Below, in pieces: positions 1 through 24,149 of a DNA stretch of 64,000 bases. A program made the translations under genes and the position numbers. Origin of the DNA: Escherichia coli (GTDB lineage: Bacteria > Pseudomonadota > Gammaproteobacteria > Enterobacterales > Enterobacteriaceae); NCBI RefSeq assembly GCF_017348835.2, contig NZ_CP071375.1; one strand, 5' to 3'. The notes beneath the pieces were generated by a model. The model searched no databases. It was not told the origin of the DNA and was given only the letters and a program-made list of their open reading frames with translations. Every line of letters begins with the position of its first letter. Within the stretch, counting starts at the first letter, position 1.

Positions 1-5366
<5,366 letters not shown>

Positions 5367-5368
5367 CA

Positions 5369-5710
5369 ATGCGAATATTTGTCTACGGCAGTTTACGCCA
5401 CAAACAAGGCAACAGTCACTGGATGACCAATGCCCAGTTACTGGGCGATTTCAGTATCGATAACTACCAGTTGTATAGCCTGGGCCACTATCCAGGCGCA
5501 GTTCCGGGGAACGGAACAGTACACGGTGAAGTTTATCGTATTGACAACGCCACGCTGGCCGAACTTGATGCCTTGCGCACCAGGGGCGGTGAATACGCGC
5601 GCCAGTTGATTCAGACGCCGTACGGGAGTGCATGGATGTACGTTTATCAACGACCCGTCGATGGATTAAAGCTAATTGAAAGCGGCGACTGGTTAGACAG
5701 GGATAAGTAA
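5369..5710 (+). CDS. ytfP: Gamma-glutamylcyclotransferase-family protein YtfP
   Basis: 113-aa ORF starting MRIFVYGSLR, directly after tamB as in E. coli. Confidence 0.85.
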   Translation: MRIFVYGSLRHKQGNSHWMTNAQLLGDFSIDNYQLYSLGHYPGAVPGNGTVHGEVYRIDNATLAELDALRTRGGEYARQLIQTPYGSAWMYVYQRPVDGLKLIESGDWLDRDK

Positions 5711-5720
5711 TAATAAAAGC

Positions 5721-5747
5721 ACGCCACCTTCGGGTGGCGTTGTTTTA
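5721..5747 (+). terminator. Rho-independent terminator downstream of ytfP
   Basis: Hairpin acgccacc-ttcg-ggtggcgt followed by a T-rich run (tgtttta). Confidence 0.55.
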
Positions 5748-6089
5748 TGCGATGTATCTCGCGATTTTTTTTTGTAACTTTTCCATCTTTTGCTTTTCTC
5801 TCCGAGCCGCTTTCCATATCTGCAATCGCATAAAAAACTCTGCTGGCGTTCACAAATGTGCAGGGGTAAAACGGGGGCACGCTTTGAACGGTGAGTATGA
5901 GTGAGGTCGGCTAACTTCCAGCAAGTGGCTATGAACAGCAAAATGGTGGTCGGGTTTGCTTGTTCTTACCGTTCAAGCCTTGCAACCGCTGAGAATAATG
6001 ATGGTGGAATAGAGAGTTTATTTATCGCGGGCATAAAAAAACCCTTACTAACCGAAGCCCGGCGTTCAGGGTTATTGCGCTAGAAGAAC

Positions 6090-6620
6090 TTATTTATTCT
6101 TTGCGCGCTCGAAGGAAGCAACGATTTCAGCTTTAGCGGCTTCTGCGTTTTCCCAACCTTCAACTTTCACCCACTTGCCTTTTTCGAGGTCTTTGTAGTG
6201 CTCGAAGAAGTGAGCGATCTGCGCTTTCAGCAGCTCTGGCAGATCGTTAACGTCTTTAATGTGATCGTATTCTTTGCTCAGCTTTGTGTGCGGAACAGCA
6301 ATCAGTTTCGCATCTTCACCGGCTTCGTCGGTCATTTTCAGAACGCCAACCGGACGGCAACGGATCACAGAACCCGGCTGCAGCGGGTACGGAGTCGGGA
6401 CCAGTACGTCAACCGGGTCACCGTCCAGAGACAGGGTGTGGTTGATGTAACCGTAGTTGCACGGATAGAACATCGCGGTGGACATGAAGCGGTCAACGAA
6501 CAGTGCGCCGCTCTCTTTGTCGATTTCGTATTTGATCGGATCTGCGTTAGCCGGGATCTCAATAACAACGTAGATGTCTTCCGGCAGATCTTTACCCGCA
6601 GGGACGTTGAGTAAGCTCAT
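6090..6620 (-). CDS. ppa: Inorganic pyrophosphatase
   Basis: 176-aa ORF ([45 protein letters not shown]...) matching E. coli Ppa. Confidence 0.95.
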
Positions 6621-6929
6621 GTCTGTTTCCTTTAAAAATATGTGGCAAACAAGTGCCGAGTATTATAGCCAACTCGCGCCGAATGTCTTCGCTTGTTTTC
6701 GTCTTCATTTTCCTTTTTCGCCAATTTTAAGACGGTATACAGAGCAGGAAAATCCATAACCGTAGCCGCATTTTTCATAGTGAGATGAAAGCGATTACAA
6801 ACTTGTGATTAACGTTTTATTTACTTCTTTGAAGTGTGATGTAACGCAATCCGTTACATAACGAATTGTCTATAGTTTTTTCGCGAACATCTTTTCACCA
6901 ATAATAATTACCCCGACGAGGACAACCCT

Positions 6930-7886
6930 ATGTGGAAACGCTTACTTGTAGTCTCTGCAGTCTCGGCAGCCATGTCGTCTATGGCGTTGGCCGCTCCATT
7001 AACCGTAGGATTTTCGCAGGTCGGATCGGAATCTGGCTGGCGCGCCGCAGAAACCAATGTGGCGAAAAGTGAGGCCGAAAAACGCGGAATTACGCTGAAA
7101 ATTGCCGATGGTCAGCAAAAGCAGGAAAACCAGATTAAAGCGGTACGTTCCTTCGTCGCGCAAGGGGTGGATGCGATCTTTATCGCTCCGGTGGTTGCGA
7201 CTGGTTGGGAACCGGTATTAAAAGAGGCGAAAGATGCCGAAATCCCGGTCTTCTTGCTCGATCGTTCTATTGATGTGAAAGACAAATCTCTCTATATGAC
7301 CACCGTCACTGCCGACAACATTCTCGAAGGCAAGTTGATTGGTGACTGGCTGGTAAAAGAAGTGAATGGCAAACCATGCAACGTGGTGGAGCTGCAGGGC
7401 ACTGTTGGGGCCAGCGTCGCCATTGACCGTAAGAAAGGCTTTGCCGAAGCCATTAAGAATGCGCCAAATATCAAAATTATCCGCTCGCAGTCAGGTGACT
7501 TCACCCGCAGTAAAGGCAAAGAAGTCATGGAGAGCTTTATCAAAGCGGAAAACAACGGCAAAAACATCTGCATGGTTTACGCCCATAACGACGACATGGT
7601 GATTGGTGCAATTCAGGCAATTAAAGAAGCGGGCCTGAAACCAGGCAAAGATATTCTGACAGGTTCTATCGACGGCGTACCGGATATCTACAAAGCGATG
7701 ATTGATGGCGAAGCGAACGCCAGTGTTGAACTGACGCCGAATATGGCAGGTCCCGCCTTCGACGCGCTGGAGAAATACAAAAAAGACGGCACCATGCCTG
7801 AAAAGCTGACGCTGACCAAATCCACCCTTTATCTGCCTGATACCGCAAAAGAAGAGTTAGAGAAGAAGAAAAATATGGGGTATTGA
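6930..7886 (+). CDS. ytfQ: Periplasmic sugar-binding protein of the ABC transporter YtfQRT-YjfF (galactofuranose)
   Basis: 318-aa ORF with signal peptide (MWKRLLVVSAVSAAMSSMALA); first gene of the ytfQRT-yjfF cluster. Confidence 0.9.
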   Translation: MWKRLLVVSAVSAAMSSMALAAPLTVGFSQVGSESGWRAAETNVAKSEAEKRGITLKIADGQQKQENQIKAVRSFVAQGVDAIFIAPVVATGWEPVLKEAKDAEIPVFLLDRSIDVKDKSLYMTTVTADNILEGKLIGDWLVKEVNGKPCNVVELQGTVGASVAIDRKKGFAEAIKNAPNIKIIRSQSGDFTRSKGKEVMESFIKAENNGKNICMVYAHNDDMVIGAIQAIKEAGLKPGKDILTGSIDGVPDIYKAMIDGEANASVELTPNMAGPAFDALEKYKKDGTMPEKLTLTKSTLYLPDTAKEELEKKKNMGY

Positions 7887-7895
7887 GGGTTGCTA

Positions 7896-7997
7896 TGCCT
7901 GATGCCGATTCGTAGGCCGGATAAGGCGCTCGCGCCGCATCCGGCGGTGGTGCGCTGAAGCCTGATGCGACGCTTACCGCGTCTTATCATGCCTACT
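7896..7997. repeat. REP (repetitive extragenic palindromic) elements between ytfQ and ytfR
   Basis: Two copies of the REP core (gcctgatgcg...cgtaggccggataaggcg...cgccgcatccggc) in the intergenic region. Confidence 0.6.
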
Positions 7998-8025
7998 GGG
8001 AGCACGCTTTACACCGGGGGAAACC

Positions 8026-9528
8026 ATGACGACTAACCAACACCAGGAGATCCTCCGCACCGAAGGATTAAGTAAATTTTTCCCCGGCGTCAAAGCGTTA
8101 GACAACGTTGATTTCAGCCTGCGCCGCGGCGAAATCATGGCGCTGCTCGGTGAAAACGGGGCAGGAAAATCAACGCTAATCAAAGCATTAACTGGTGTAT
8201 ACCACGCCGATCGCGGCACCATCTGGCTGGAAGGCCAGGCTATCTCACCGAAAAATACCGCCCATGCACAACAACTCGGTATCGGCACCGTCTATCAGGA
8301 AGTAAACCTGCTACCCAATATGTCGGTCGCTGATAATCTATTTATAGGCCGCGAACCCAAACGCTTCGGCCTTCTACGCCGCAAAGAGATGGAAAAGCGC
8401 GCCACCGAACTGATGGCATCTTACGGTTTCTCCCTCGACGTGCGCGAACCGCTCAACCGCTTTTCAGTCGCGATGCAGCAAATCGTCGCTATTTGCCGGG
8501 CTATCGATCTCTCTGCCAAAGTGCTGATCCTCGATGAACCCACCGCCAGTCTCGACACCCAGGAAGTGGAGTTACTGTTTGACCTGATGCGTCAGTTGCG
8601 CGATCGCGGCGTCAGCCTGATTTTTGTCACTCACTTTCTCGATCAGGTCTATCAGGTCAGCGATCGGATCACCGTCTTACGCAACGGCAGTTTCGTAGGC
8701 TGTCGGGAAACGTGCGAGCTACCGCAGATCGAACTGGTAAAAATGATGCTGGGGCGCGAGCTGGATACCCACGCGCTACAGCGTGCCGGGCGAACATTGT
8801 TGAGCGACAAACCCGTTGCCGCGTTCAAAAATTACGGCAAAAAAGGAACGATCGCACCGTTTGATCTCGAAGTACGCCCCGGCGAGATCGTCGGTCTGGC
8901 TGGATTGCTGGGATCAGGACGTACCGAAACCGCCGAAGTGATCTTCGGTATCAAACCTGCTGACAGCGGCACGGCGTTGATCAAAGGCAAACCGCAAAAC
9001 CTGCGATCGCCACATCAGGCTTCGGTACTGGGCATTGGCTTCTGCCCGGAAGACAGGAAAACCGATGGCATCATCGCTGCCGCCTCGGTGCGGGAAAATA
9101 TCATCCTCGCTCTCCAGGCCCAGCGCGGCTGGCTACGTCCCATTTCCCGCAAAGAACAGCAAGAGATTGCCGAACGCTTTATCCGCCAGCTTGGCATTCG
9201 CACACCTTCAACTGAACAACCGATTGAATTTCTCTCTGGCGGCAATCAGCAAAAAGTGTTGCTTTCACGTTGGCTACTGACCCGACCGCAATTTCTGATC
9301 CTTGATGAGCCAACTCGCGGCATTGATGTTGGTGCCCACGCCGAGATCATCCGCCTGATTGAAACGCTATGCGCCGATGGTCTGGCGCTGCTGGTGATCT
9401 CCTCCGAACTGGAAGAACTGGTGGGCTATGCCGACCGGGTGATCATCATGCGCGATCGCAAACAGGTGGCGGAGATCCCGCTGGCAGAGCTTTCCGTTCC
9501 GGCGATCATGAACGCCATTGCGGCGTAA
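8026..9528 (+). CDS. ytfR: ABC transporter ATP-binding protein YtfR (two nucleotide-binding domains)
   Basis: 500-aa ORF with two Walker A motifs (GENGAGKST and GLLGSGRTE) and two LSGG signature motifs. Confidence 0.9.
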   Translation: MTTNQHQEILRTEGLSKFFPGVKALDNVDFSLRRGEIMALLGENGAGKSTLIKALTGVYHADRGTIWLEGQAISPKNTAHAQQLGIGTVYQEVNLLPNMSVADNLFIGREPKRFGLLRRKEMEKRATELMASYGFSLDVREPLNRFSVAMQQIVAICRAIDLSAKVLILDEPTASLDTQEVELLFDLMRQLRDRGVSLIFVTHFLDQVYQVSDRITVLRNGSFVGCRETCELPQIELVKMMLGRELDTHALQRAGRTLLSDKPVAAFKNYGKKGTIAPFDLEVRPGEIVGLAGLLGSGRTETAEVIFGIKPADSGTALIKGKPQNLRSPHQASVLGIGFCPEDRKTDGIIAAASVRENIILALQAQRGWLRPISRKEQQEIAERFIRQLGIRTPSTEQPIEFLSGGNQQKVLLSRWLLTRPQFLILDEPTRGIDVGAHAEIIRLIETLCADGLALLVISSELEELVGYADRVIIMRDRKQVAEIPLAELSVPAIMNAIAA

Positions 9529-9541
9529 GGAGAACAGTGTG

Positions 9542-10564
9542 ATGCCTCAATCTCTCCCGGACACTACGCCGCCGAAAAGGCGCTTTCGCTGGCCAACGGG
9601 AATGCCGCAGCTGGCGGCACTGTTGCTGGTGCTGCTGGTCGATAGCCTGGTGGCCCCGCATTTCTGGCAGGTGGTGCTCCAGGATGGGCGTTTATTCGGT
9701 AGCCCCATAGACATTCTTAACCGTGCGGCCCCCGTTGCGCTGTTGGCTATCGGAATGACGCTGGTGATCGCAACAGGTGGGATTGATCTCTCCGTGGGGG
9801 CGGTGATGGCTATCGCCGGAGCCACAACGGCTGCGATGACGGTCGCGGGATTCAGCCTGCCGATTGTTTTGTTAAGCGCCCTGGGCACTGGCATCCTGGC
9901 GGGATTGTGGAACGGCATACTGGTAGCGATCCTCAAAATTCAGCCGTTTGTTGCCACCCTGATCCTGATGGTCGCCGGGCGCGGCGTGGCGCAACTGATC
10001 ACCTCCGGACAGATCGTCACGTTTAACTCGCCGGATCTCTCATGGTTTGGCAGTGGATCGCTGTTGTTCCTGCCAACGCCGGTCATTATCGCGGTGCTGA
10101 CGCTTATCCTGTTCTGGCTGTTGACCCGCAAAACGGCGCTGGGGATGTTTATCGAAGCCGTTGGTATCAACATTCGGGCGGCAAAAAATGCCGGGGTAAA
10201 CACGCGGATCATCGTCATGCTTACCTACGTGTTGAGCGGGCTGTGTGCGGCGATTGCGGGCATTATCGTGGCGGCGGATATTCGCGGTGCCGATGCCAAT
10301 AACGCCGGGTTATGGCTGGAGCTGGACGCCATTCTCGCGGTGGTTATTGGCGGCGGATCGCTGATGGGCGGACGTTTTAACCTACTGCTTTCGGTGGTGG
10401 GGGCGCTGATTATTCAGGGGATGAACACCGGAATTTTGCTTTCGGGCTTTCCGCCAGAGATGAACCAGGTTGTAAAAGCGGTGGTGGTTCTTTGCGTGCT
10501 GATTGTCCAGTCGCAACGCTTTATCAGTCTGATTAAAGGAGTACGTAGCCGTGATAAAACGTAA
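9542..10564 (+). CDS. ytfT: ABC transporter permease YtfT
   Basis: Hydrophobic ORF; ATG at 9542 preferred over the track start 9518 because of the AAGGAGA Shine-Dalgarno at 9527-9533. Confidence 0.8.
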   Translation: MPQSLPDTTPPKRRFRWPTGMPQLAALLLVLLVDSLVAPHFWQVVLQDGRLFGSPIDILNRAAPVALLAIGMTLVIATGGIDLSVGAVMAIAGATTAAMTVAGFSLPIVLLSALGTGILAGLWNGILVAILKIQPFVATLILMVAGRGVAQLITSGQIVTFNSPDLSWFGSGSLLFLPTPVIIAVLTLILFWLLTRKTALGMFIEAVGINIRAAKNAGVNTRIIVMLTYVLSGLCAAIAGIIVAADIRGADANNAGLWLELDAILAVVIGGGSLMGGRFNLLLSVVGALIIQGMNTGILLSGFPPEMNQVVKAVVVLCVLIVQSQRFISLIKGVRSRDKT

Positions 10565-11546
10565 TTTGCCACTGATGATCACCATCGGCGTCTTTGTGTT
10601 GGGTTATCTTTACTGCCTGACCCAGTTTCCCGGTTTTGCTTCCACAAGAGTGATCTGCAATATCCTGACCGATAACGCCTTTCTTGGGATCATTGCCGTT
10701 GGCATGACCTTTGTGATCCTCTCCGGTGGGATCGATCTCTCCGTCGGTTCGGTGATCGCCTTTACTGGCGTGTTTCTGGCAAAAGTGATTGGCGATTTCG
10801 GCCTCTCGCCGCTACTGGCGTTTCCGCTAGTGCTGGTGATGGGCTGTGCCTTCGGCGCATTTATGGGGCTTTTGATCGACGCCCTGAAGATCCCGGCATT
10901 TATCATTACCCTGGCGGGGATGTTCTTTTTGCGCGGTGTCAGCTATCTCGTTTCGGAAGAGTCGATTCCGATAAACCATCCCATTTATGACACGCTCTCA
11001 AGCCTTGCGTGGAAAATCCCTGGCGGCGGTCGCTTAAGTGCGATGGGACTGCTGATGTTGGCGGTGGTGGTTATCGGTATTTTCCTCGCGCATCGTACCC
11101 GTTTTGGTAATCAGGTATACGCCATTGGCGGCAACGCAACGTCGGCGAACCTGATGGGGATTTCCACTCGCAGCACCACTATTCGCATTTATATGCTTTC
11201 CACCGGACTGGCAACGCTGGCGGGGATTGTCTTCTCGATTTATACCCAGGCCGGATATGCGCTGGCGGGCGTAGGTGTGGAACTGGATGCTATCGCCTCA
11301 GTGGTAATTGGCGGTACGCTTCTGAGCGGTGGCGTTGGAACGGTATTAGGGACGCTTTTTGGCGTGGCGATTCAGGGACTGATTCAGACTTACATAAACT
11401 TTGATGGCACGCTGAGCTCATGGTGGACGAAAATCGCCATCGGTATTTTGTTGTTTATTTTTATAGCATTACAGCGTGGATTAACGGTGCTGTGGGAGAA
11501 TCGTCAGAGTTCGCCAGTGACAAGAGTCAACATTGCGCAGCGATAA
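10551..11546 (+). CDS. yjfF: ABC transporter permease YjfF
   Basis: 331-aa hydrophobic ORF with GTG start, overlapping the ytfT stop. Confidence 0.85.
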   Translation: MIKRNLPLMITIGVFVLGYLYCLTQFPGFASTRVICNILTDNAFLGIIAVGMTFVILSGGIDLSVGSVIAFTGVFLAKVIGDFGLSPLLAFPLVLVMGCAFGAFMGLLIDALKIPAFIITLAGMFFLRGVSYLVSEESIPINHPIYDTLSSLAWKIPGGGRLSAMGLLMLAVVVIGIFLAHRTRFGNQVYAIGGNATSANLMGISTRSTTIRIYMLSTGLATLAGIVFSIYTQAGYALAGVGVELDAIASVVIGGTLLSGGVGTVLGTLFGVAIQGLIQTYINFDGTLSSWWTKIAIGILLFIFIALQRGLTVLWENRQSSPVTRVNIAQR

Positions 11547-11578
11547 AAACGCCTCTCCGTGTGGAGAGGCGCAGGAGA

Positions 11579-12577
11579 TTACGCGTCCGGGAACTCACGG
11601 ATAAAGCGTTCGACATCTTCAACCATATGGTCGTTGCCGACAAAGAACGAACGGCGCTGGTGCAGAGTTTCCGGGATGATATCCAGAATACGCTCTTTGC
11701 CATCGCTCGCTTTACCGCCCGCTTGTTCCGCCAGGAATGCCATCGGGTTGCACTCATAAAGCAAACGCAGTTTGCCGTCCGGGTGGCTGGCGGTGCTTGG
11801 GTAGAGATAAATACCGCCTTTCAGCAGGTTACGGTGGAAATCCGCGACCAGTGAACCGATATAACGTGAGGTATACGGGCGGTTGGTGGATTTATCTTCT
11901 TCCTGGCAGAATTTAATGTACTTCTTCACCCCGTTCGGAAACTTAATGTAGTTTCCTTCGTTGATGGAGTAGGTTTTGCCTTTCTCCGGGAAGCGCATCC
12001 GTTCCTGGCACAGGCAGAAAACGCCGAGCGAAGGATCGTAAGTAAAGGCGTGAACACCGCATCCGGTGGTGTAAACCAGCATGGTAGAGGAGCCGTATAC
12101 CACGTAACCTGCCGCAACCTGTTTGTTACCAGGCTGGAGGAAATCTTCTTCCGTTACCGGCGTGCCGACGGGCGTAACGCGGCGGTAGATGGAGAAAATG
12201 GTACCGACAGAGACGTTAACATCGATGTTGGACGAGCCATCCAGTGGGTCCATCAGCACCACGTATTTTGCATGTTCACAGCCTTCAAAGACGACAATCT
12301 CATCTTCTTCTTCAGAGGCAATGCCCGCAACGATATCGCGTGCTTTCAGTGCGGCTTTCAGTTTTTCATTAGCGAACAAGTCGAGTTTTTGCTGAACCTC
12401 GCCCTGCACGTTCTCAGCACCGCTGGCACCCAGGATATCAACCAGTCCTGCTTTGTTGATATCGCGATGGATAATCTTGGCGCCCAGTTTTATTGCCGAC
12501 AGCAAAGCAGTGAGCTCACCGGTAGCATGAGAAAACTCGTGCTGCTTTTCGACAATAAATTCACCTAACGTTTTCAT
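11579..12577 (-). CDS. fbp: Fructose-1,6-bisphosphatase class I
   Basis: Translation from the internal Met ([15 protein letters not shown]...) matches E. coli Fbp at 332 aa; the 393-aa track ORF carries a spurious N-terminal extension. Confidence 0.9.
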
Positions 12578-12752
12578 AAAACTTTCCCTGCAATGTTTAT
12601 GGAGTAAAGCGACCGTAACAATCTTAACAAATAATCGGAATGTTGCGCTCAGGTGAATCGCGCCAGCGAATTGCGGATTATCCTGAAATGCGTTTCTCAC
12701 TTGCCCGACATATGCGTAAAATGAGCGGCAGATTAAAAAAGGATAGTGACGT

Positions 12753-14126
12753 ATGCGCATTCATATTTTAGGAATTTGTGGCACGTTTATGGGCGGTCTG
12801 GCGATGCTGGCGCGCCAGTTAGGCCATGAAGTAACGGGTTCGGACGCCAATGTGTATCCGCCGATGAGCACCTTACTTGAGAAGCAAGGCATTGAACTGA
12901 TTCAGGGTTACGATGCCAGCCAGCTCGATCCGCAGCCGGATCTGGTGATTATTGGCAACGCCATGACCCGTGGAAATCCGTGTGTGGAAGCGGTACTGGA
13001 AAAAAACATCCCTTATATGTCAGGTCCACAGTGGCTGCACGATTTTGTGCTGCGCGACCGCTGGGTGCTGGCCGTTGCCGGTACACATGGCAAAACCACC
13101 ACCGCGGGAATGGCGACCTGGATTCTGGAACAGTGCGGTTACAAACCGGGATTTGTGATCGGCGGTGTGCCGGGGAACTTTGAGGTTTCGGCGCGTCTGG
13201 GCGAAAGCAACTTCTTTGTTATCGAAGCGGATGAGTATGACTGCGCCTTCTTCGACAAACGCTCTAAATTTGTTCATTACTGCCCGCGTACGCTGATCCT
13301 CAACAACCTTGAGTTCGATCACGCCGATATCTTTGACGACCTGAAAGCGATCCAGAAACAGTTCCACCATCTGGTGCGTATCGTTCCGGGGCAGGGCCGT
13401 ATTATCTGGCCAGAAAACGACATCAACCTGAAACAGACCATGGCGATGGGCTGCTGGAGCGAGCAGGAGCTGGTGGGCGAGCAAGGTCACTGGCAGGCGA
13501 AAAAGCTGACCACCGATGCTTCCGAATGGGAAGTCTTGCTGGATGGCGAAAAAGTGGGCGAAGTGAAATGGTCGCTGGTAGGCGAACATAATATGCACAA
13601 TGGCCTGATGGCGATTGCGGCGGCTCGCCATGTTGGTGTAGCGCCGGCAGATGCCGCTAACGCGCTGGGTTCGTTTATTAACGCTCGCCGCCGTCTGGAG
13701 TTGCGTGGTGAAGCGAATGGCGTAACGGTATATGACGATTTTGCCCATCACCCGACGGCGATTCTGGCAACGCTTGCGGCGCTGCGTGGCAAAGTTGGCG
13801 GTACGGCGCGCATTATTGCTGTGCTGGAACCGCGCTCGAATACCATGAAAATGGGGATCTGCAAAGACGATCTGGCACCTTCATTAGGTCGTGCCGATGA
13901 AGTCTTCCTGCTGCAACCAGCGCATATTCCGTGGCAGGTGGCAGAAGTGGCAGAAGCCTGCGTTCAGCCTGCACACTGGAGTGGCGATGTGGATACGCTG
14001 GCAGATATGGTGGTGAAAACCGCTCAGCCTGGCGACCATATTCTGGTGATGAGCAACGGCGGTTTTGGTGGGATCCATCAGAAACTGCTGGATGGTCTGG
14101 CGAAGAAGGCGGAAGCTGCGCAGTAA
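12753..14126 (+). CDS. mpl: UDP-N-acetylmuramate:L-alanyl-gamma-D-glutamyl-meso-diaminopimelate ligase (murein peptide ligase)
   Basis: 457-aa ORF ([20 protein letters not shown]...) with Mur-ligase GTHGKTTT motif; divergent from fbp. Confidence 0.9.
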
Positions 14127-14149
14127 TTCGGCCTCAGCCTGATATAGTG

Positions 14150-14255
14150 TGCGTAGGCCGGATAAGGCGTTCACGCCGCATCCGGCATTTGAGCATAGTG
14201 CCTGATGCGACGCTTGATGCGTCTTATCAGGCCTACAGGTGCACCGCATCCGGCA
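14150..14255. repeat. REP elements downstream of mpl
   Basis: gtaggccggataaggcg...cgccgcatccggc and gcctgatgcgacgc...gtcttatcaggcctac REP cores. Confidence 0.55.
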
Positions 14256-14281
14256 AACCATACTCACATCAACAACGAAAA

Positions 14282-14827
14282 TTACCCTTCATTCTCCGCC
14301 AGTTCGCGCAGATACTGGAAAATCTGGCGTGCGGATTTCGGCGGCTTATTCCCTTCTTTCTCTTTCTTCGCGTTACGGATCAGAGTACGCAGTTGCTGAC
14401 GATCGGCATCGGGCCACAGATTCAATACTTCAGCGATGGCGTCATCACCTTGATCGATCAGACGATCGCGCAGGTTTTCCAGTTTATGGAACAGCACCAC
14501 CTGCTGGTTGTGACGGTTTTTCAGCTTATCCAGCGCCTGACGAATAGGCTCTACGTCGCGCTGGCGCAGCATCTTACCGATGAGCTGCAACTGGCGGCGG
14601 CGACCTTCCATCTTAATACGCTGGGCGAGCTCAATAGCCGCGCGCAGATCCGCATCTAACGGGATCTTATCCAGCGCGTTTTTCCCCAGATCAACAATTT
14701 CCGCGCCAAGGCGTTTTAGCTCCTCGGCATCACGTTTAATTTCACTTTTACTGACCCAGATAATTTCATCGTCTTCGATGTCATCACCGGGAACGTCGTC
14801 GAGCCAGTCTTCGGGCTGCTTAGTCAT
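14282..14827 (-). CDS. yjgA: Ribosome-associated protein YjgA (DUF615)
   Basis: 181-aa ORF ([41 protein letters not shown]...) in the K-12 position. Confidence 0.85.
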
Positions 14828-14920
14828 CTCAGGCTCCTTAAAAAAAGAGGCTAATGTTACCAGTTAAGATGCGCACTGAAAAACGGTTCTCTGTTAGACT
14901 TCAGAGAAACTCTCTACATT

Positions 14921-16273
14921 ATGGCACTTGCAATGAAAGTAATCTCTCAAGTTGAAGCGCAGCGCAAGATTCTGGAAGAAGCAGTTTCCACTGCGCTGGA
15001 GTTGGCCTCAGGCAAATCGGACGGTGCGGAAGTTGCCGTCAGCAAGACCACCGGCATTAGCGTAAGCACGCGTTATGGTGAAGTGGAGAATGTTGAATTC
15101 AATAGCGATGGCGCGCTGGGGATCACTGTTTATCACCAGAACCGCAAAGGTAGCGCATCATCCACCGATTTAAGCCCGCAGGCCATTGCCCGCACCGTAC
15201 AGGCGGCTCTGGATATTGCCCGTTATACCTCGCCAGATCCCTGTGCCGGCGTGGCAGACAAAGAGCTGCTGGCCTTTGAGGCACCGGATCTCGATTTGTT
15301 CCACCCTGCGGAAGTTTCCCCGGATGAAGCCATTGAACTGGCGGCCCGCGCAGAACAGGCAGCATTACAGGCGGACAAACGTATCACCAATACCGAAGGT
15401 GGCAGCTTTAACAGCCACTACGGTGTCAAAGTTTTTGGCAACAGCCACGGCATGTTGCAGGGTTACTGCTCTACGCGTCATTCGCTCTCCAGCTGTGTAA
15501 TTGCCGAAGAAAATGGCGATATGGAGCGTGATTACGCCTACACCATTGGTCGTGCGATGAGCGATCTGCAAACGCCAGAGTGGGTTGGGGCCGACTGTGC
15601 TCGCCGTACTTTATCGCGCCTGTCACCGCGTAAACTCTCCACCATGAAAGCGCCGATCATTTTTGCCAATGAAGTGGCAACCGGGCTTTTTGGGCATCTG
15701 GTGGGGGCGATAGCGGGTGGAGCGGTTTACCGTAAATCTACCTTCCTGCTGGATTCGCTGGGTAAACAAATTCTGCCGGACTGGCTGACCATTGAAGAGC
15801 ATCCGCATCTGCTGAAAGGGCTGGCATCGACGCCATTTGACAGCGAAGGTGTGCGCACCGAGCGTCGCGATATTATTAAAGATGGCATCCTGACTCAGTG
15901 GCTGCTGACCAGCTATTCGGCGCGAAAACTGGGGCTGAAAAGCACCGGACATGCGGGCGGTATTCACAACTGGCGGATTGCCGGACAAGGGCTAAGCTTC
16001 GAACAAATGCTCAAAGAGATGGGCACCGGGCTGGTGGTGACGGAGCTGATGGGCCAGGGCGTGAGTGCAATTACCGGTGATTATTCCCGTGGTGCGGCGG
16101 GCTTCTGGGTAGAAAACGGCGAAATTCAGTATCCGGTTAGCGAAATCACCATCGCAGGTAATTTAAAAGATATGTGGCGCAATATTGTCACCGTCGGTAA
16201 CGATATTGAAACACGCAGTAATATACAGTGTGGTTCTGTGCTGTTGCCGGAGATGAAAATCGCCGGGCAGTAA
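14921..16273 (+). CDS. pmbA: Metalloprotease PmbA (TldE)
   Basis: 450-aa ORF of the size and position of E. coli PmbA. Confidence 0.9.
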
Positions 16274-16324
16274 AAAACTGGCGCGACCTGCCGCGCCAAA
16301 TCTTCATAATAAAAAAGGAAGTGA

Positions 16325-16714
<390 letters not shown>

Positions 16715-16758
16715 TTCCTCATTTCCCTGTTGCCTGCACTCAGGTAACAGGGAACTTA

Positions 16759-17223
16759 TCATCGCAAATGATGCACCACCTGATTGCTGCTGCCGCGCCA
16801 GATCAGGGAAGGGTCTTTTAAATCCTGCACAAATTTGCCGTCGACCAGTACGTTAATCAAATCAACAACCTGCATTTGCGCAGCGTTGAGATCGTCGAGT
16901 TTATAGCCTGTCCACACCCAGATGTCTTTATCCGGACACTCGGCGCGGATGCGTTTTACCAGTTTCAGAATATCCGGCACGTTTTGCGGATGCAGCGGAT
17001 CGCCGCCGGAGAGGGAAATCCCCTGGCGTTTGATACGAGTGTCATTCAGATCGTTAATGATCTGGTCTTCCATTGCTTTGGTAAATGGCTGACCAGAATT
17101 TACCCGCCATGTGCTTTTGTTATAGCAACCGGGGCATTCATGAACACACCCGGAGACAAACAGGGTGCAGCGAGTGCCGGGGCCGTTGACGATGTCGACA
17201 GGATAGTACTGATGATAATTCAT
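16759..17223 (-). CDS. nrdG: Anaerobic ribonucleotide reductase activating protein
   Basis: 154-aa ORF with radical-SAM cysteine motif (CxxxCxxC region: VSGCVHECPGCYNKST). Confidence 0.9.
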   Translation of the reverse strand: MNYHQYYPVDIVNGPGTRCTLFVSGCVHECPGCYNKSTWRVNSGQPFTKAMEDQIINDLNDTRIKRQGISLSGGDPLHPQNVPDILKLVKRIRAECPDKDIWVWTGYKLDDLNAAQMQVVDLINVLVDGKFVQDLKDPSLIWRGSSNQVVHHLR

Positions 17224-17239
17224 TATTTCGCCTGGCTTA

Positions 17240-17362
<123 letters not shown>

Positions 17363-17382
17363 TGCTTAGCGCAGAGTGAAGA

Positions 17383-19521
17383 TTAACCTATCTGCCCATT
17401 CCCCAAATGTTTAACGCGGCGCTTAACTTCTTCCTGCTTACCGGCGTTAAACGGACGTGCATCCGGGCTACCTAAATATCCGCACACGCGGCGAGTTACC
17501 GACACACGGGAGGCGTCATGGTTACCACATTTCGGGCAAGTGAAGCCTTTGCTGGTGCACTCGAACTCACCGGTAAAGCCACACTCGTAGCACTCATCAA
17601 TCGGTGTATTGGTGCCGTAATACGGTACATGCTGATAGCTGTAATCCCAGACATCTTCCAGCGCTTTCAGGTTGTGCTGAATGTTTGGATACTCGCCGTA
17701 GCAAATGAAACCACCGTTCGCCAGCGGCGGGTAAGGCGCTTCAAAGTCGATCTTGTCGTACGGGTTCACCTTCTTCTCCACATCAAGGTGGAAACTGTTG
17801 GTGTAGTAACCTTTATCGGTCACGCCCGGCACCACGCCAAACTCAGCAGTATCGAGACGGCAGAAGCGGTCGCACAGGTTTTCACTCGGCGTGCTGTAGA
17901 GACTGAAACCATAACCCGTTTCTTCTTTCCACTGATCCACTGCCTGACGCAGACGTTCAACAATCGCGATACCTTTCGCGCGGAGCTGCTCGTTGTCGTA
18001 AACATGCTCGCCGCCGAACAGCGCGTTAATGGTTTCGTGGATGCCGATGTAACCCAGCGAAATAGACGCACGACCGTTTTTGAAGATTTCAGAAACATCA
18101 TCGTCAGCATTCAGACGCACGCCACAAGCACCTTCCATATAAAGGATCGGGGCCACGCGCGCTTTCACGCCTTCCAGACGAGCGATACGGGTCATCAGCG
18201 CCTTACGTGCCAGCACCAGACGTTCATCCAGCAGCTTCCAGAAGGTGGCTTCATCGCCTTTTGCTTCCAGAGCAATACGCGGCAGGTTCAGGCTGATCAC
18301 GCCGAGGTTGTTACGACCATCGTGGATCTGCTCGCCGTTTTCATTTTCCCACACGCCGAGGAAGCTGCGGCAGCCCATCGGGGTTTTAAACGAACCGGTG
18401 ACTTTCACTACCTGATCGTAGTTCAGGATATCCGGATACATGCGCTTGCTTGCGCACTCCAGCGCCAGCTGTTTGATGTCGTAGTTCGGATCGCCTTTTT
18501 TATGGTTCAGACCATCGCGAATCGCAAACACCAGTTTCGGGAACACCGCAGTTTTACGGTTTTTACCGAGACCTGCGATACGGTTACGCAGGATAGATTC
18601 CTGAATCAGGCGCGATTCCCAGCTGGTGCCCAGACCAAAACCAAAAGTTACAAACGGCGTTTGACCGTTGGCGGTATGCAGGGTGTTTACTTCGTACTCC
18701 AGCGACTGGAAGGCATCGTAGCACTCTTTAATGGTACGAGAGTTAGCGTAGCCTTCTGCGTCCGGGATGCTCCACTCTTCTGCGGTCTTGCGATGTTTGT
18801 TGTAGCTGGCGGTGACAAACGGTGCCAGCACTTCATCGATACGGTTAATGGTGGTGCCGCCATAAATATGGCTGGCAACCTGAGCAATAATCTGCGCAGT
18901 TACCGCGGTTGCCGTTGAGATCGACTTCGGCGGTTCAATCTCGGCGTTCCCCATTTTAAAGCCCTGGGTCAGCATGCCTTTCAGGTCGATCAACATGCAG
19001 TTGAACATCGGGAAAAACGGTGAGTAATCGAGATCGTGATAGTGAATATCGCCACGCTCATGTGCCTGCACCACGTCACGCGGCAGCAGGTGCTGACGTG
19101 CATAGTGTTTAGCCACGATCCCGGCCAGCAGGTCGCGCTGGGTTGGAATCACCTTGCTGTCTTTGTTGGCGTTTTCGTTGAGTAACGAGGCGTTGGTCTG
19201 CTCGACCAGACCACGGATCTCCTGGTTCAGGCGACCGCGTTTTTCACGTTCAATGTCGCGATCGTGACGGTACTCGATGTAAGCGCGAGCCAGTTGTTTG
19301 TATGGACCCGACATCAGCTGGTTTTCAACTGCGGTCTGGATCTCGTTGATATCCACCTGGTTGCGGCCCTGCATCTGCTCGCTGACAACCGCGGCAACAG
19401 TGGCGCAATAATCGGCATCATCGACTTCCGCTGCTTTAGCTGCACGCAGAATCGCTTCTTTGATGCGCTCTGATTTAAACGGCACTTTGCAGCCGTCTCG
19501 TTTCATCACATGCGGTGTCAT
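17383..19521 (-). CDS. nrdD: Anaerobic ribonucleoside-triphosphate reductase
   Basis: 712-aa ORF ending in the glycyl-radical region (RVCGYLG) and carrying a C-terminal Cys cluster. Confidence 0.95.
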   Translation of the reverse strand: MTPHVMKRDGCKVPFKSERIKEAILRAAKAAEVDDADYCATVAAVVSEQMQGRNQVDINEIQTAVENQLMSGPYKQLARAYIEYRHDRDIEREKRGRLNQEIRGLVEQTNASLLNENANKDSKVIPTQRDLLAGIVAKHYARQHLLPRDVVQAHERGDIHYHDLDYSPFFPMFNCMLIDLKGMLTQGFKMGNAEIEPPKSISTATAVTAQIIAQVASHIYGGTTINRIDEVLAPFVTASYNKHRKTAEEWSIPDAEGYANSRTIKECYDAFQSLEYEVNTLHTANGQTPFVTFGFGLGTSWESRLIQESILRNRIAGLGKNRKTAVFPKLVFAIRDGLNHKKGDPNYDIKQLALECASKRMYPDILNYDQVVKVTGSFKTPMGCRSFLGVWENENGEQIHDGRNNLGVISLNLPRIALEAKGDEATFWKLLDERLVLARKALMTRIARLEGVKARVAPILYMEGACGVRLNADDDVSEIFKNGRASISLGYIGIHETINALFGGEHVYDNEQLRAKGIAIVERLRQAVDQWKEETGYGFSLYSTPSENLCDRFCRLDTAEFGVVPGVTDKGYYTNSFHLDVEKKVNPYDKIDFEAPYPPLANGGFICYGEYPNIQHNLKALEDVWDYSYQHVPYYGTNTPIDECYECGFTGEFECTSKGFTCPKCGNHDASRVSVTRRVCGYLGSPDARPFNAGKQEEVKRRVKHLGNGQIG

Positions 19522-19756
19522 GATCGCTCCATATTTTTAAGAACAGGTTATCCACAGAAATTGGGAAAGGCGTTTTCCGGTTTTTTCGTTTCGTTTTCCG
19601 GTGCTTTCCGCAATCGCCATCCGCTTATCCACAACGCCGCACCTTTTTCGTGGGGAGCTGTAGTAGCAATTATAGTCGATTAATACAACATATTGGGTTG
19701 GGACGCATTTTAAAGTCTATATATAGTGCTTTGCATCAAGGATGTTTTAACTTTTT

Positions 19757-19770
19757 TTGATGTAGCTCAA
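19757..19770. promoter_or_regulatory. FNR-like site (TTGAT-N4-nTCAA) upstream of nrdD
   Basis: ttgatgtagctcaa in the nrdD upstream region; nrdDG is known to be FNR-activated. Assignment by motif only. Confidence 0.35.
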
Positions 19771-19914
19771 AGTAAAAAGCAGAGCGTACGGATGACGGGC
19801 GCTACAGCGTTATGTAAATTTTTTAATGAATTTGCTGGTTGAAAAATCAACAAAAACAACATGCTGACAGACAAAACCCCGGAATGACCGGCATTACCGG
19901 GGCTTAGGGAAGAT

Positions 19915-21570
19915 TTACTTCTGTAACCACCAGACAGCCTCAAAAGGCCGTAAATTCATGGCACAGGGTTGTGGTGAGGCTTCTTCGTAGTTATGCATCA
20001 CAAGCTGCCAGTTGCCGCGCATTTGCCCTGGCTGCCAGGGTTGGATCTCACGGCTAAGGTTGGCAATGACCAGCAAGGTTTGCCCCTTCCATTCACGGCG
20101 ATAGCACCACAATACAGGGCTGTTTGGCAGCAGATCCTGGTAATTGCCCCATGTCAGGATGGCTTCTTGCTTACGCAGTGCGATTAACTTTTGGTAGGTG
20201 TAAAATACCGAGGACTCATCGGCCAGCGCGGCTTCTACGTTGATTTGTTGATAGTTATCGCCCAGGCCAATCCACGGTTCGCCAGCCGTAAACCCGGCAT
20301 TATCGCCGTTGCTCCATTGCATGGGCGTGCGGCTGTTGTCACGGGATTTACTGGCGAGGATTGCCAATAACTCGTCGGCATCACGACCATCGTTGCGCAG
20401 CTCGGCAAACATATTGAGGCTCTCCACGTCGCGATAGTCAGTAATGCGCGTGAAATGCGGGTTGGTCATGCCAATCTCTTCGCCCTGGTAGATATACGGC
20501 GTTCCCTGCATGCCATGCAGCACCATCGCCAGCATTTTTGCCGCAGGCACGCGGTATTCACCTTCATCACCAAAGCGAGAAATAATGCGCGGCTGATCGT
20601 GGTTACACCAGAACAAGGCATTCCATGCCACGTTGTGCATTCCTTGTTGCCAGTGGCGGAACAATGTTTTCAACGCCACAAAGTCAGGTTTAGCCAGCGT
20701 CCATTTTTCACCACCGGGATAATCGACCTTCAGGTGATGAAAATTAAAGGTCATCGACAATTCACTGCCTGTCAGTGCCGCGTATCGCTGGCAATGCTCA
20801 AGGCTGGTGGAGGACATTTCACCTACGGTCATTAACCCGCGTGGCGTAAACACATCGCGGTTCATCTCGTGCAAAAACTCGTGTGCTCGTGGCCCGTCGG
20901 TGTAGAAGCGACGCCCGTCGCCATCCAGGTCATCAGGGAAACGTGGGTCTTTGGAGATCAGATTCACCACATCCAGGCGCAACCCGTCGACCCCACGATC
21001 GGCCCAGAACTCACAGACTTTTTTCAGCTCTGCGCGTACCGCTGGATTCTCCCAGTTGAGATCCGCCTGCTCTGGTGCAAAGAGATGCAAATAGTACTGT
21101 TCGCTTTCCGCATGCCAGCGCCACGCACTACCGCCAAATTTTGAACGCCAGTTGTTCGGTGGCGTTTCTGGTTCGCCATCGCGCCAGATATAAAACTGGC
21201 GGTAAGGGCTTTCTTTGTTCAGCGCCTCGCGAAACCAGGCATGTTGGGTAGAGGTATGGTTAAACACCATATCGAGAATGATACGAATCCCGCGCGATTT
21301 TGCCTGCGTCACCAGTTCGTCAAAATCGTCCAGCGTGCCGTAAGTGGGATCAATCGCCGTATAGTTCGCTACGTCGTAACCGTTATCGACCTGGGGAGAG
21401 ACATAAAAGGGGGTTAGCCAGATGGCATCAACGCCCAGTTTATGCAGATAGCCCAGGCGTTGGATAACGCCACGTAAATCGCCGGTGCCGCTACCCGTGG
21501 TGTCCTGAAAACTCTTTGGATAAATCTGGTAGATAACGCCGTTTTGCCACCAGTGGGGAAGATTAGTCAT
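19915..21570 (-). CDS. treC: Trehalose-6-phosphate hydrolase
   Basis: Internal Met start (MTNLPHWWQNGVIYQIYPKSF...) gives 551 aa, the size of TreC; glycoside hydrolase family 13 motifs. Confidence 0.9.
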   Translation of the reverse strand: MTNLPHWWQNGVIYQIYPKSFQDTTGSGTGDLRGVIQRLGYLHKLGVDAIWLTPFYVSPQVDNGYDVANYTAIDPTYGTLDDFDELVTQAKSRGIRIILDMVFNHTSTQHAWFREALNKESPYRQFYIWRDGEPETPPNNWRSKFGGSAWRWHAESEQYYLHLFAPEQADLNWENPAVRAELKKVCEFWADRGVDGLRLDVVNLISKDPRFPDDLDGDGRRFYTDGPRAHEFLHEMNRDVFTPRGLMTVGEMSSTSLEHCQRYAALTGSELSMTFNFHHLKVDYPGGEKWTLAKPDFVALKTLFRHWQQGMHNVAWNALFWCNHDQPRIISRFGDEGEYRVPAAKMLAMVLHGMQGTPYIYQGEEIGMTNPHFTRITDYRDVESLNMFAELRNDGRDADELLAILASKSRDNSRTPMQWSNGDNAGFTAGEPWIGLGDNYQQINVEAALADESSVFYTYQKLIALRKQEAILTWGNYQDLLPNSPVLWCYRREWKGQTLLVIANLSREIQPWQPGQMRGNWQLVMHNYEEASPQPCAMNLRPFEAVWWLQK

Positions 21571-21619
21571 TACGTTATTCCTGCAAATGCGAGAGGGCGC
21601 AATTGCGCCCCGAAGAAAA

Positions 21620-23041
21620 TTAAACAATGTCCAGCGTGCCCAGGCGGTATTTCCGCTGATAGATAAACGAGGTGAGTACAATCGGGATGATGATGGCGAT
21701 AGCCATTGCCAGCGCAAACACCTGCCAGTAGCTCGGTTGAATCGAGAGAATTCCCGGCAGGCCGCCTACGCCGATACCATTCGCCATAACGCCGTTCAGG
21801 CCGCATAGCAATCCTGCCAGACCAGAACCAATCATCGCGCACAGCATCGGGAAGCGATATTTCAGGTTGATGCCGTACATTGCAGGCTCAGTGACCCCAA
21901 GCCAGGCGGAGATAGCGGCAGGCACGGAGATCTCGCGCTCATTGTGCTTGCGGCTGGAAATGATAATGCCTATTACGGCGGAGCCCTGAGCGATATTCGA
22001 CAGCGCAATCAGCGGCCACACTGGCGTGCCACCCATGCTTTGAATCATCTGCAAATCAATAGCAAGGGTGGTCTGGTGTACGCCGGTGATCACCAGCGGC
22101 GCGTACAGGAAGCCAAACAATGCCGCACCAATCGGAGCAAAGCTGCCGGTCATCAGGTGACGTACCGCAAAGGCAACGCCATCGCCAATCATGCGACCAA
22201 ACGGACCAATCAGCGCATGGGCGAGGAACACCGCGAGGATCAGCGAACAGACGGGTACCACCACCAGATAGAGGTAATCCGGCACGATGCGTTTAAGGCG
22301 AGTTTCAATAACGCCCAGCGCCAGTCCGGCTAACAGTGCCGGGATCACCTGCGCCTGATAGCCTACTTTGGCGATGCTGAACATGCCAAAGTCCCACACT
22401 TCCGGCAGCTGCTGCCCGAGCAGATAAGCGTTCATCAGCTGTGGAGAAACCAGTGTCACGCCAAGCACGATACCAAGGATCGGCGTGCCGCCCATTTTTT
22501 TCACCGCTGACCAGCAAATACCGACCGGCAGGTAGAAGAAGATCGCTTCACCGATCAACCACAGAAAATCGTAGATCGTTTGCAGGGAAGGGTACATTTG
22601 CGCCAGCGTCTGACCGTTGCTCATGGGCAAATCGCCGATCACATTGCGAAAACCGAGGATCAAACCGCCGCTGATCAACGCGGGCAGCAACGGGAAGAAG
22701 ATCTCCGCGAAATGAGAGATCAACTGCTCATGCCATTTCATATTCTGCCGGGCGGCTTTTTTTACCTGCTCTTTATCAACCTGCGCCTGTCCGGTTGACG
22801 CTATTAGTGCTTGATAGTAATCACCCACATTGGTGCCAATCACCACCTGAAATTGCCCGGCATTGGTGAAACAGCCTTTCACCATGGGGAGTTGCTCAAT
22901 TTCTTTCGGTCTGGCATTGGCCGGTTGGTTGAGGACAAAGCGCAGGCGAGTAATACAGTGGCTCACCGTCGCAATATTGCCGCGCCCGCCGACCAGTTCA
23001 ATCAACCGATCGATATCCGTTTGGTTTATTTTGCTCATCAT
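21620..23041 (-). CDS. treB: PTS trehalose-specific EIIBC component
   Basis: 473-aa ORF with PTS EIIB cysteine motif near the N terminus (HCITRLRF) and a polytopic C-terminal domain. Confidence 0.9.
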   Translation of the reverse strand: MMSKINQTDIDRLIELVGGRGNIATVSHCITRLRFVLNQPANARPKEIEQLPMVKGCFTNAGQFQVVIGTNVGDYYQALIASTGQAQVDKEQVKKAARQNMKWHEQLISHFAEIFFPLLPALISGGLILGFRNVIGDLPMSNGQTLAQMYPSLQTIYDFLWLIGEAIFFYLPVGICWSAVKKMGGTPILGIVLGVTLVSPQLMNAYLLGQQLPEVWDFGMFSIAKVGYQAQVIPALLAGLALGVIETRLKRIVPDYLYLVVVPVCSLILAVFLAHALIGPFGRMIGDGVAFAVRHLMTGSFAPIGAALFGFLYAPLVITGVHQTTLAIDLQMIQSMGGTPVWPLIALSNIAQGSAVIGIIISSRKHNEREISVPAAISAWLGVTEPAMYGINLKYRFPMLCAMIGSGLAGLLCGLNGVMANGIGVGGLPGILSIQPSYWQVFALAMAIAIIIPIVLTSFIYQRKYRLGTLDIV

Positions 23042-23159
23042 AAAGCCCCATGGCAGATGACATTTTTGGTTGGCTGCAGAATATATTGCGCGGAAAAATT
23101 TAAAAACGGGAACGTTCCCGAAACGCAGCGAAGATCACAATTTATCGTTCAGGAAACGA

Positions 23160-24107
23160 TCAGGACAGGGTGGCGGGGATGATGATTTGTTGCGGTTCGC
23201 TGCGCCCGGTTACCTGTGCGATCAATTGGCAGGCCGCCTGGCGTCCAGCTTCGGCGTAACCGGGATCTACGGTGACGATCTCCGGATGGAGGAATTTCAT
23301 TAACGGTGTATTACCGACGCTCGCCAGTTGCAAGGTGTCGATGCGTTGCTCTTGCAGGTATTTACTTGCGCCAAGTGCCAGCGTGTCGGTTGCGCACAGT
23401 AACGCAGTAGTTTCAGGCGTAATCACTTTTGCCACGTTCTCATAGCCTTGCTTCATAGCAAGCCCTGGCAGAGCGGCAACGGGATGCAGTTTATGCGCTT
23501 TGCAGAACGCCAGGTAGGCTTCGTGACGTCGCTTACCGGTTGTCACGTCACTATGCGGCACGCCGAGATAACTGATATTACGATGCCCCTGGTCATACAG
23601 CCGTTGCATCAGGATCTTGATTGCCCCTTCGTCGTCATAACAGACCGAAGCAAAGCCTTTTGCGTTACGCGCCAGCAGAACCAGCGATGACTGCCAGTGG
23701 GCTAACATTTCTTCTGTTATGCCAGTAAAACCGAACAGCACTACGCCGTCGATATTACGCCGTTTCAGCACCCCCAAATGTTCGGCAACTAATTGTGGGG
23801 AAAACTGACTTTCCATCATGATTGGGTCGTAACCTTGTTCATAGAACGCTGGCAGCATGGTTTGAACGGCGAGATTTTCTGACAACGAATCCAGACGGGT
23901 AACAATGATGGCGACCACTTTATCGCTTTGCCCACGCATAGCGCGCGCAGAGCGGGAAGGGGAAAATCCATGCTGATTCATCACTGCTTCAACACGCTCG
24001 CGGGTGCGCTGGCTCACGCCGCTTTCGTTATTCAGCACCCGGGAAACTGTAGATTTCCCCACGCCGCTTAAGCGTGCGATGTCTTTGATGGTCAGCCGAT
24101 TTTGCAT
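23160..24107 (-). CDS. treR: Trehalose operon repressor (LacI family)
   Basis: 315-aa ORF with N-terminal helix-turn-helix (MQNRLTIKDIARLSGVGKSTVSRVLN). Confidence 0.9.
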   Translation of the reverse strand: MQNRLTIKDIARLSGVGKSTVSRVLNNESGVSQRTRERVEAVMNQHGFSPSRSARAMRGQSDKVVAIIVTRLDSLSENLAVQTMLPAFYEQGYDPIMMESQFSPQLVAEHLGVLKRRNIDGVVLFGFTGITEEMLAHWQSSLVLLARNAKGFASVCYDDEGAIKILMQRLYDQGHRNISYLGVPHSDVTTGKRRHEAYLAFCKAHKLHPVAALPGLAMKQGYENVAKVITPETTALLCATDTLALGASKYLQEQRIDTLQLASVGNTPLMKFLHPEIVTVDPGYAEAGRQAACQLIAQVTGRSEPQQIIIPATLS

Positions 24108-24149
24108 CCTGTTGTCCTGTAACGTGTTGTTTAATTATTTGAGCCTAAC

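Follow-up and report, generated by a model that had tools for sequence, protein, structure and literature searches.

The ytfP-ppa spacer of an Escherichia coli strain very probably holds a decayed remnant of the chpS-chpB toxin-antitoxin cassette

The chpSB locus is a long-known and dispensable chromosomal toxin-antitoxin module. Its distribution among phylogroups, scored as chpBIK, was reportedly found to be uneven by Fiedoruk et al. in 2015. The closest conceptual parallel to the locus described here is the chromosomal ccdO157 toxin-antitoxin system of E. coli, the decay of which is said to have been described by Mine et al. in Genetics in 2009. Both are chromosomal type II systems which occupy a fixed intergenic site and are intact or degraded depending on the strain, and such patterns fit weak or absent selection for maintenance. 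ccdO157 belongs to another toxin-antitoxin family, lies at another locus (folA-apaH) and carries many independent point inactivations, whereas one apparently old deletion haplotype dominates among the chpSB remnants.

In K-12 the pair chpS-chpB (chpBI-chpBK, b4224/b4225) is a member of the MazEF/PemIK group. Pfam assigned K-12 ChpS to MazE_antitoxin (PF04014) and K-12 ChpB to PemK_toxin (PF02452, 1e-25). The original prediction placed the pair between ytfP and ppa in K-12, and the RefSeq annotation of CJ236 places it there, with MG1655 and DH5alpha matching at 100%. The RefSeq annotation leaves 211 bp on the 5' side of the pair and 79 bp on the 3' side, and the same K-12 spacing appears in the table available from PMC5120126. 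The presence/absence polymorphism of chpSB and the alternative occupant esiB are already known from Pastorello et al. (2013, mBio, PMC3735183), where chpBS is reported in 53% of 47 genomes, esiB in 15% and neither in 32%. The same study describes direct repeats with partial inverted symmetry around esiB. The presence or absence of chpBIK is routinely scored by PCR and in GWAS, clinical categories included.

The DNA analyzed was a stretch of 64,000 nucleotides from E. coli contig NZ_CP071375.1, referred to as the window. Its first 25 kb matched the pig isolates PE164 and F2_81 at 100% and ATCC 8739 at 99.9%. The plus strand carries tamB (1587-5366) and ytfP (5369-5710), which encodes a protein of the gamma-glutamylcyclotransferase family. 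The inorganic diphosphatase gene ppa lies on the minus strand at 6090-6620, convergent with ytfP, and is followed by ytfQ on the plus strand (6930-7886). ytfP and ppa were identified from their ORFs and from the RefSeq annotation of matching genomes. As ytfP ends at 5710 and ppa at 6090, the spacer between them spans 5711-6089. This is 379 bp, in agreement with the predicted length of about 380 bp.

No intact ChpS or ChpB was found in the 64-kb window by tblastn, which bears out the prediction that the strain is missing a functional chpSB. ChpS had no match in the spacer, and its matches inside tamB and other genes of the 64-kb window were weak (E values of at least 0.035). The window contained no intact toxin ORF with a PemK/MazF domain (PF02452), just a 125-nt fragment bearing stops and frameshifts. 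The spacer contained no antitoxin ORF of the MazE/AbrB type (PF04014) placed upstream of and overlapping a toxin. Judged on these features the strain would be a natural chpSB null, without the ChpB endoribonuclease and without ChpS. In the locus scheme of Pastorello et al. (PMC3735183), the window belongs to the "neither" class, and such strains are described there as simply lacking both genes. RefSeq genomes carry no annotation for the spacer or for a 60-codon ORF within it. The missing proteins, the missing annotation and the published description would all suit a clean empty site, in which the lineage never had chpSB or lost all of it and the 379 bp are ordinary intergenic DNA with two terminators.

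The structure of the spacer was established by alignment with K-12, as the original prediction had suggested, followed by alignment with further loci, ten intact and three of the remnant type. These alignments defined the indel boundaries, the 5' one within 5874-5882 and the 3' one after 6007. Approximately 290 of the 379 bp derive from the cassette, as leader sequence and a 125-nt fragment of chpB. The prediction that the interval holds no chpSB-like coding sequence was not upheld. The spacer is very probably the decayed remnant of a chpS-chpB toxin-antitoxin cassette of the MazEF family, type II. It occupies the same position as K-12 chpS-chpB, and its leader and a segment corresponding to chpB nt 19-145 are homologous to that locus. 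Compared to K-12 it is missing the antitoxin gene, the operator and promoter, the toxin start codon and the 3' two-thirds of the toxin gene. The remaining toxin piece carries two stops and two frameshifts, and the locus does not qualify as a functional family member.

Alignment to intact alleles placed about 163 nt of the 211-nt ytfP-chpS leader, from its 5' side, at 5711-5873 on the plus strand, ending in GGGGTAAAACG. This segment was 85-94% identical to the leaders of intact alleles in Escherichia and was partly alignable in Lelliottia, Enterobacter, Kluyvera and C. sedlakii. This homology to intact-allele leaders counts against a clean empty site. The ytfP terminator is located at the 5' end of this segment (5721-5746). 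Terminator scanning and folding showed a GC hairpin, ACGCCACCTTCGGGTGGCGT, followed by a T run. The hairpin itself (5721-5740) is conserved across Enterobacteriaceae, and 5721-5746 scored as a terminator on either strand. The leader is followed by 9 nt on the plus strand, GGGGCACGC (5874-5882), which have an unclear origin in the alignments, so the 5' junction is not placeable to a single nucleotide. The 5' deletion removed the operator palindrome, the -10 region, the Shine-Dalgarno site, all of chpS and chpB nt 1-18. A 19-nt palindromic operator, AGTTATACTTTGTATAACT, together with GGAGG was kept in all 11 intact loci, which represent five genera. When the window spacer was aligned with these 11 loci the operator and Shine-Dalgarno site were not found in it. 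A promoter scan of 5600-6200 returned no sigma-70-like site.

The chpB fragment lies at 5883-6007 on the plus strand and was aligned at the nucleotide level to chpB nt 19-145 (codons 7-48). The local alignment score was 78 compared to 18 ± 2.5 for 1,000 dinucleotide shuffles (z = 24), a second point against a clean empty site. In a blastn search of 28 Gb the fragment matched annotated chpB of approximately 3,100 genomes with 72.4% identity (E = 2e-7). Identity to Escherichia chpB was 72-74% over the 125 nt. In a comparison across genera Escherichia chpB was nearest at 71-74%, and chpB of other genera was farther away at 47-60%. The best tblastn match to ChpB in the 64-kb window was at 5906-5989 (E = 0.005) and contained an internal stop. 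The fragment is syntenic with K-12 chpB, both being located between ytfP and ppa. Its lesions are in-frame stops at 5892-5894 (TGA) and 5912-5914 (TAA) and 1-nt deletions at about 5895/5896 and 5957/5958. Differences from K-12 chpB were spread evenly over the three codon positions (12/9/13), whereas intact chpB orthologues of other genera differed mainly at the third position (about 5/4/25). The substitution pattern of the fragment therefore looks neutral. The frame-corrected remnant peptide of 42 amino acids had no Pfam match. Because Pfam returned nothing for either this peptide or the 60-codon ORF, the case for a remnant rests on nucleotide homology and synteny, and the protein-level evidence is weak.

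The 3' junction coincides with a repeat. K-12 chpB has TGGTGG direct repeats at nt 140 and nt 341, and in the window the junction reads GATGGTGG directly followed by AATAG. The deletion removed chpB nt 146 to about 346, exactly between the two repeats, as would be expected of slippage or of a microhomology-mediated deletion. Based on the repeats and the alignments, 6008-6012 on the plus strand is a residue of the chpB 3' end, in which GAA TAA has become G/AATAG (the slash marks the junction). The remainder of the spacer, 6013-6089, corresponds to the chpB-ppa spacer of intact alleles with 96-97% identity and carries the ppa terminator on the minus strand. This terminator, at about 6036-6076, has the stem AACCCT...AGGGTT with a run of seven T residues and a predicted fold of -14.4 kcal/mol. 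The prediction that the spacer contains terminators for both flanking genes was correct, with hairpins at 5721-5740 for ytfP and at about 6036-6076 for ppa.

The cassette would have reached this state by two deletions in either order. One would have removed the operator and promoter, the whole antitoxin gene and the toxin start codon. The other, of the slippage or microhomology type between the TGGTGG repeats, would have removed the 3' two-thirds of the toxin gene. Either deletion alone would disable the toxin, making this a safe route of loss. As the 5' deletion takes the antitoxin and toxin expression together, at no step would the toxin be active with its antitoxin gone. The toxin would also be killed independently by the 3' deletion or by the nonsense mutations. 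After a single origin the remnant would have drifted neutrally, coexisting in E. coli with the intact allele and moving between lineages through homologous recombination in its flanks. Later, esiB would have inserted upstream of it in some B2-type strains.

The states of the locus were counted in 5,426 complete E. coli genomes, with chpSB called intact at a coverage of at least 80%. Intact chpSB was present in 3,098 genomes and the remnant allele in 2,323, while at most 5 genomes had neither. A population in which at most 5 of 5,426 genomes are without both the intact gene and the remnant is difficult to reconcile with a clean empty site. The esiB gene, encoding a secretory-IgA-binding protein, was found in 188 genomes, and by arithmetic nearly all of these must belong to the remnant class. 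By identity to the window, 1,526 remnant alleles were at 99% or above, 105 at 95-99%, 689 at 90-95% and four at 80-90%. The remnant of BL21(DE3) and C41(DE3) was 100% identical to that of the window, and ATCC 8739 is also remnant-bearing. Expressed in the classes of Pastorello et al. (PMC3735183), the 5,426 genomes comprise 57% chpSB, about 39% neither and 3.5% esiB, compared to 53, 32 and 15% in that study. The original prediction regarded the locus as a presence/absence polymorphism for a toxin-antitoxin module. The locus is indeed polymorphic, the intact module being present in 57% of genomes and missing from 43%, but the site without it is decayed rather than cleanly absent and at least three states exist.

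The third state consists of esiB together with the remnant, and rarer states have IS, prophage or bgl-operon insertions. In strain A37 (L005:2334-4368) the 1,473-bp esiB, encoding an SLR/TPR protein, is flanked on either side by a copy of the ytfP terminator hairpin (GCCACCTTCGGGTGGCG and GCCACCTGCGGGTGGCG). Downstream of it come the chpSB leader and the chpB remnant. As esiB lies upstream of leader and remnant, it entered a remnant-type allele. The duplicated hairpin matches the direct repeats around esiB described by Pastorello et al. (PMC3735183). The window is not an esiB allele, as its spacer has a single hairpin copy and no room for esiB.

Other insertions were observed in individual strains. 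E. coli N50 (NZ_CM165889.1, 4493000-4520000; L006/L007) has a rare fourth state with cargo directly beside ppa, at the place where the ytfP-ppa spacer would be expected. This cargo consists of a bgl-type beta-glucoside PTS operon (IIABC, GH1 hydrolase, licT) and a P2-like prophage with integrase, Cox, capsid and tail genes. FDAARGOS_1250 has IS1A between ytfP and ppa, and GF130 (L088:1-681) has an IS4-family element immediately upstream of leader and remnant. Strain HH45 (NZ_CP116411.1; L091:1198-1709) was considered as an intermediate allele. Its 512-bp spacer has remnant-type flanks and junctions around a 100-nt stretch which is 100% identical to K-12 chpB nt 19-119. It also has a GC-rich low-complexity insert, CCCACCCGCGC...GGGGGGGGCCCCCC..., and is annotated in RefSeq as a partial PemK/MazF pseudogene. 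This patchwork locus is probably an artefact of assembly or polishing, or else a one-off mosaic, and was not counted as evidence.

The junction was then compared across Enterobacteriaceae by a scan for YtfP relatives using one genome per species, which returned 80 loci, all of which were analyzed. Many genomes of Citrobacter, Klebsiella, Kluyvera, Enterobacter, Raoultella and Salmonella diarizonae have a truly empty spacer of 93-165 bp. The empty spacers of Citrobacter, Klebsiella, Kluyvera, Enterobacter and Salmonella diarizonae resemble the window in having convergent ytfP and ppa and the ytfP terminator hairpin. At empty sites the hairpin is all that remains of the leader and is the only element shared with the window spacer, except that a few loci also share part of the ppa-proximal spacer. 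The window spacer, with 379 bp, leader and chpB fragment, is unlike these sites, which are 93-165 bp long and have neither element. A clean empty site was therefore rejected as highly improbable, being refuted by the homology of leader and chpB fragment, the population counts and the size of real empty sites.

Intact chpS-chpB was found at the identical position in several genera, starting 213-218 nt past ytfP. The hosts were four Escherichia species-level genomes, Lelliottia, Enterobacter asburiae, one Enterobacteriaceae isolate, two Pseudocitrobacter and Kluyvera genomosp. 1. Outside Escherichia the intact pairs had 63-78% amino acid identity to K-12. Different remnants were seen in two further species. 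Citrobacter sedlakii NBRC 105722 (L030:4343-4686) has a 341-bp spacer with the 5' part of the leader and chpB codons from about 63 to 107, and E. cloacae DSM 26481 (L036:6100-6168) has about 23 ChpS-like codons beside ppa. Their boundaries differ from those of the Escherichia remnant, which marks them on alignment as independent of it. Given empty, intact and independently decayed sites across genera, the cassette with its leader is therefore an old and patchily kept occupant of the ytfP-ppa junction which has decayed independently more than once.

Unrelated cargo was also present at the junction. A TonB-dependent receptor with a YncE-like beta-propeller (about 3.4 kb) was found in Citrobacter, Lelliottia and an Enterobacter MAG. 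In S. arizonae the junction holds a small ORF and an Hcp-domain protein extended at its C-terminus, and C. youngae has an Hcp-domain protein related to that of S. arizonae. Silvania and Pluralibacter have a methyl-accepting chemotaxis-like protein, as judged by eye, and Enterobacter has small membrane ORFs. Across Enterobacteriaceae, cargo appears to enter the ytfP-ppa junction repeatedly.

The age of the remnant was assessed by comparing the alleles of the window, strain 1943, Ecol_448, A37, a cryptic-clade 'E. coli' (L011) and the E. albertii type strain (L013). In the alignment all of these had both junctions, the first 1-nt deletion and both stops in common. Identity to the window was 96% for L011 and 87-88% for E. 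albertii. Junctions and lesions shared between E. coli, the cryptic clade and E. albertii point to a single, old origin of the remnant haplotype. A37 and Ecol_448 lack the second 1-nt deletion, which is therefore later.

Remnants differ from one another by 4-17%, with small indels, and from intact chpB by about 27%. Leader divergence between the allele classes was 6-15% and did not sort by class. The leader of the window had 94% identity to that of Escherichia sp. MOD1 and 88% to that of E69 (L008), both of which are intact alleles. This suggests that recombination reaches into the leader from ytfP while the short remnant between the two deletions is inherited as a block. The fragment has diverged from intact chpB to a much greater extent than the adjoining leader has between classes. 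This gap is unexplained by simple in situ decay of the present-day Escherichia allele. Accounting for it requires either recombination which homogenizes the leader or an ancestral chpB allele of greater divergence.

Under the second option the remnant would derive from a different, more divergent chpSB cassette, and the intact E. coli allele would be a later re-acquisition from a relative. Besides the divergence gap, intact chpB varies little among Escherichia species (95-98% identity), as would follow from a recent spread, and the presence of chpSB at the same site in several genera means that donors exist. Set against this, Escherichia chpB is clearly the nearest relative of the fragment (71-74% compared to 47-60%), the even spread over codon positions fits long neutral decay of an Escherichia-type gene, and the 125 nt available permit only very rough dating. 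A separate, more divergent source is considered unlikely.

The spread of the remnant haplotype was examined by comparing the window to S88 and K-12. Over 1-11,000 and 22500-26500 the window had 0-1 mismatch to S88 per 500 bp, while over 11000-22500 the two differed by approximately 1-1.5%. Divergence from K-12 was 1.5-2% over 1-11,000 and 1-2% throughout. Near-identity to S88 at the locus with divergence beyond it indicates spread by homologous recombination. BL21, ATCC 8739 and K-12 are taken here to be phylogroup A and S88 to be B2. With the remnant in A strains (BL21, ATCC 8739) and a B2 strain (S88) and an intact locus in K-12 (A), the remnant haplotype crosses phylogroups by homologous recombination. 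The original prediction considered the locus a useful strain marker. Its value is limited, as the allele is present in 2,323 of 5,426 genomes, occurs in both A and B2 strains and recombines between lineages. Since it crosses lineages by recombination, the remnant allele is a poor clonal marker. In the same comparison an indel or unalignable patch was observed at about 16296-16347 of the window, upstream of and at the cybC start (50 nt relative to K-12, 11 nt relative to S88). RefSeq annotates cybC with 366 nt in CJ236 and with 387 nt in S88, and its start or length therefore differs from strain to strain.

The 60-codon frame noted in the original prediction is at 5901-6083 on the plus strand. 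It is out of frame with the chpB remnant and crosses the ppa terminator. It had been described as the single frame of the spacer, which is incorrect, as ORFs of 56, 77 and 82 codons are also present there. It had also been described as unlike ChpS and ChpB. This is accurate for the translation, which has no Pfam family, but the underlying DNA at 5883-6007 aligns to chpB in other frames. The ORF is open, at 60-64 codons, in window-type alleles, E. albertii and L011, and is interrupted in the remnant alleles of Ecol_448, A37 and GF130. It was treated as a chance ORF. An Rfam scan of 5300-6700 at a permissive E-value found no family in the spacer. A sub-threshold match to the S15 leader inside ppa was taken as chance.

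Co-option of the leader and remnant or of the 60-codon ORF, as a small RNA, a small protein or a spacer or insulator between the convergent terminators, would explain survival since before the split of E. coli and E. albertii. The identical boundaries persist in three Escherichia species, and window-type alleles, E. albertii and L011 have all kept the ORF open. Between E. coli and E. albertii the remnant differs by 13% (Jukes-Cantor about 0.14, compared to about 0.33 between remnant and intact chpB), which is lower than the 0.35-0.40 at 4-fold sites of tamB and ytfQ between the two species. The 4-fold sites of ytfP and ppa, however, are equally low at 0.13, and the low divergence thus belongs to the whole block, through introgression or local rate, and not specifically to the remnant. 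No promoter-like site, Rfam family or Pfam family was found in the scans, the second major allele family (Ecol_448, A37, GF130) has an interrupted ORF, and remnant alleles vary by small indels and by up to 10-17%. Co-option is accordingly rated very unlikely, and by the features of its sequence the remnant most likely does nothing today. A molecular-clock date for the remnant was rejected as unsafe because it would depend on 125 nt and because the 4-fold sites of ytfP and ppa are unusually similar between the species.

A broader reading is put forward tentatively and is held to be possible but doubtful. The remnant and intact chpSB would form an old trans-species polymorphism of Escherichia, in which a deletion haplotype predating the split has been shuffled by recombination and kept at intermediate frequency (43% compared to 57%). 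It would perhaps be maintained by opposing costs and benefits of ChpB, and the cassette, including its leader of about 211 nt, would be a site-specific unit across Enterobacteriaceae. If true, ChpB would have opposing effects, for example phage defense or stress tolerance against toxicity.

The remnant itself may be the sole new detail. The searchable text of PMC3735183 makes no mention of a remnant, pseudogene or truncated copy. Nothing specific on a chpB remnant or pseudogene came up in a literature search, though other papers could still note one.

What is scored as "chpBIK present/absent" by PCR or in pan-genome studies would be a polymorphism of intact and remnant alleles which recombines between lineages. 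With a recombining haplotype, associations with clinical categories may reflect linked haplotypes rather than ChpB function. The common laboratory and production strains BL21(DE3), C41(DE3) and ATCC 8739 would be natural chpSB nulls. Little would change for biology at large, and the remnant would serve as an example of how a toxin-antitoxin module may be lost without an unopposed toxin being left behind.
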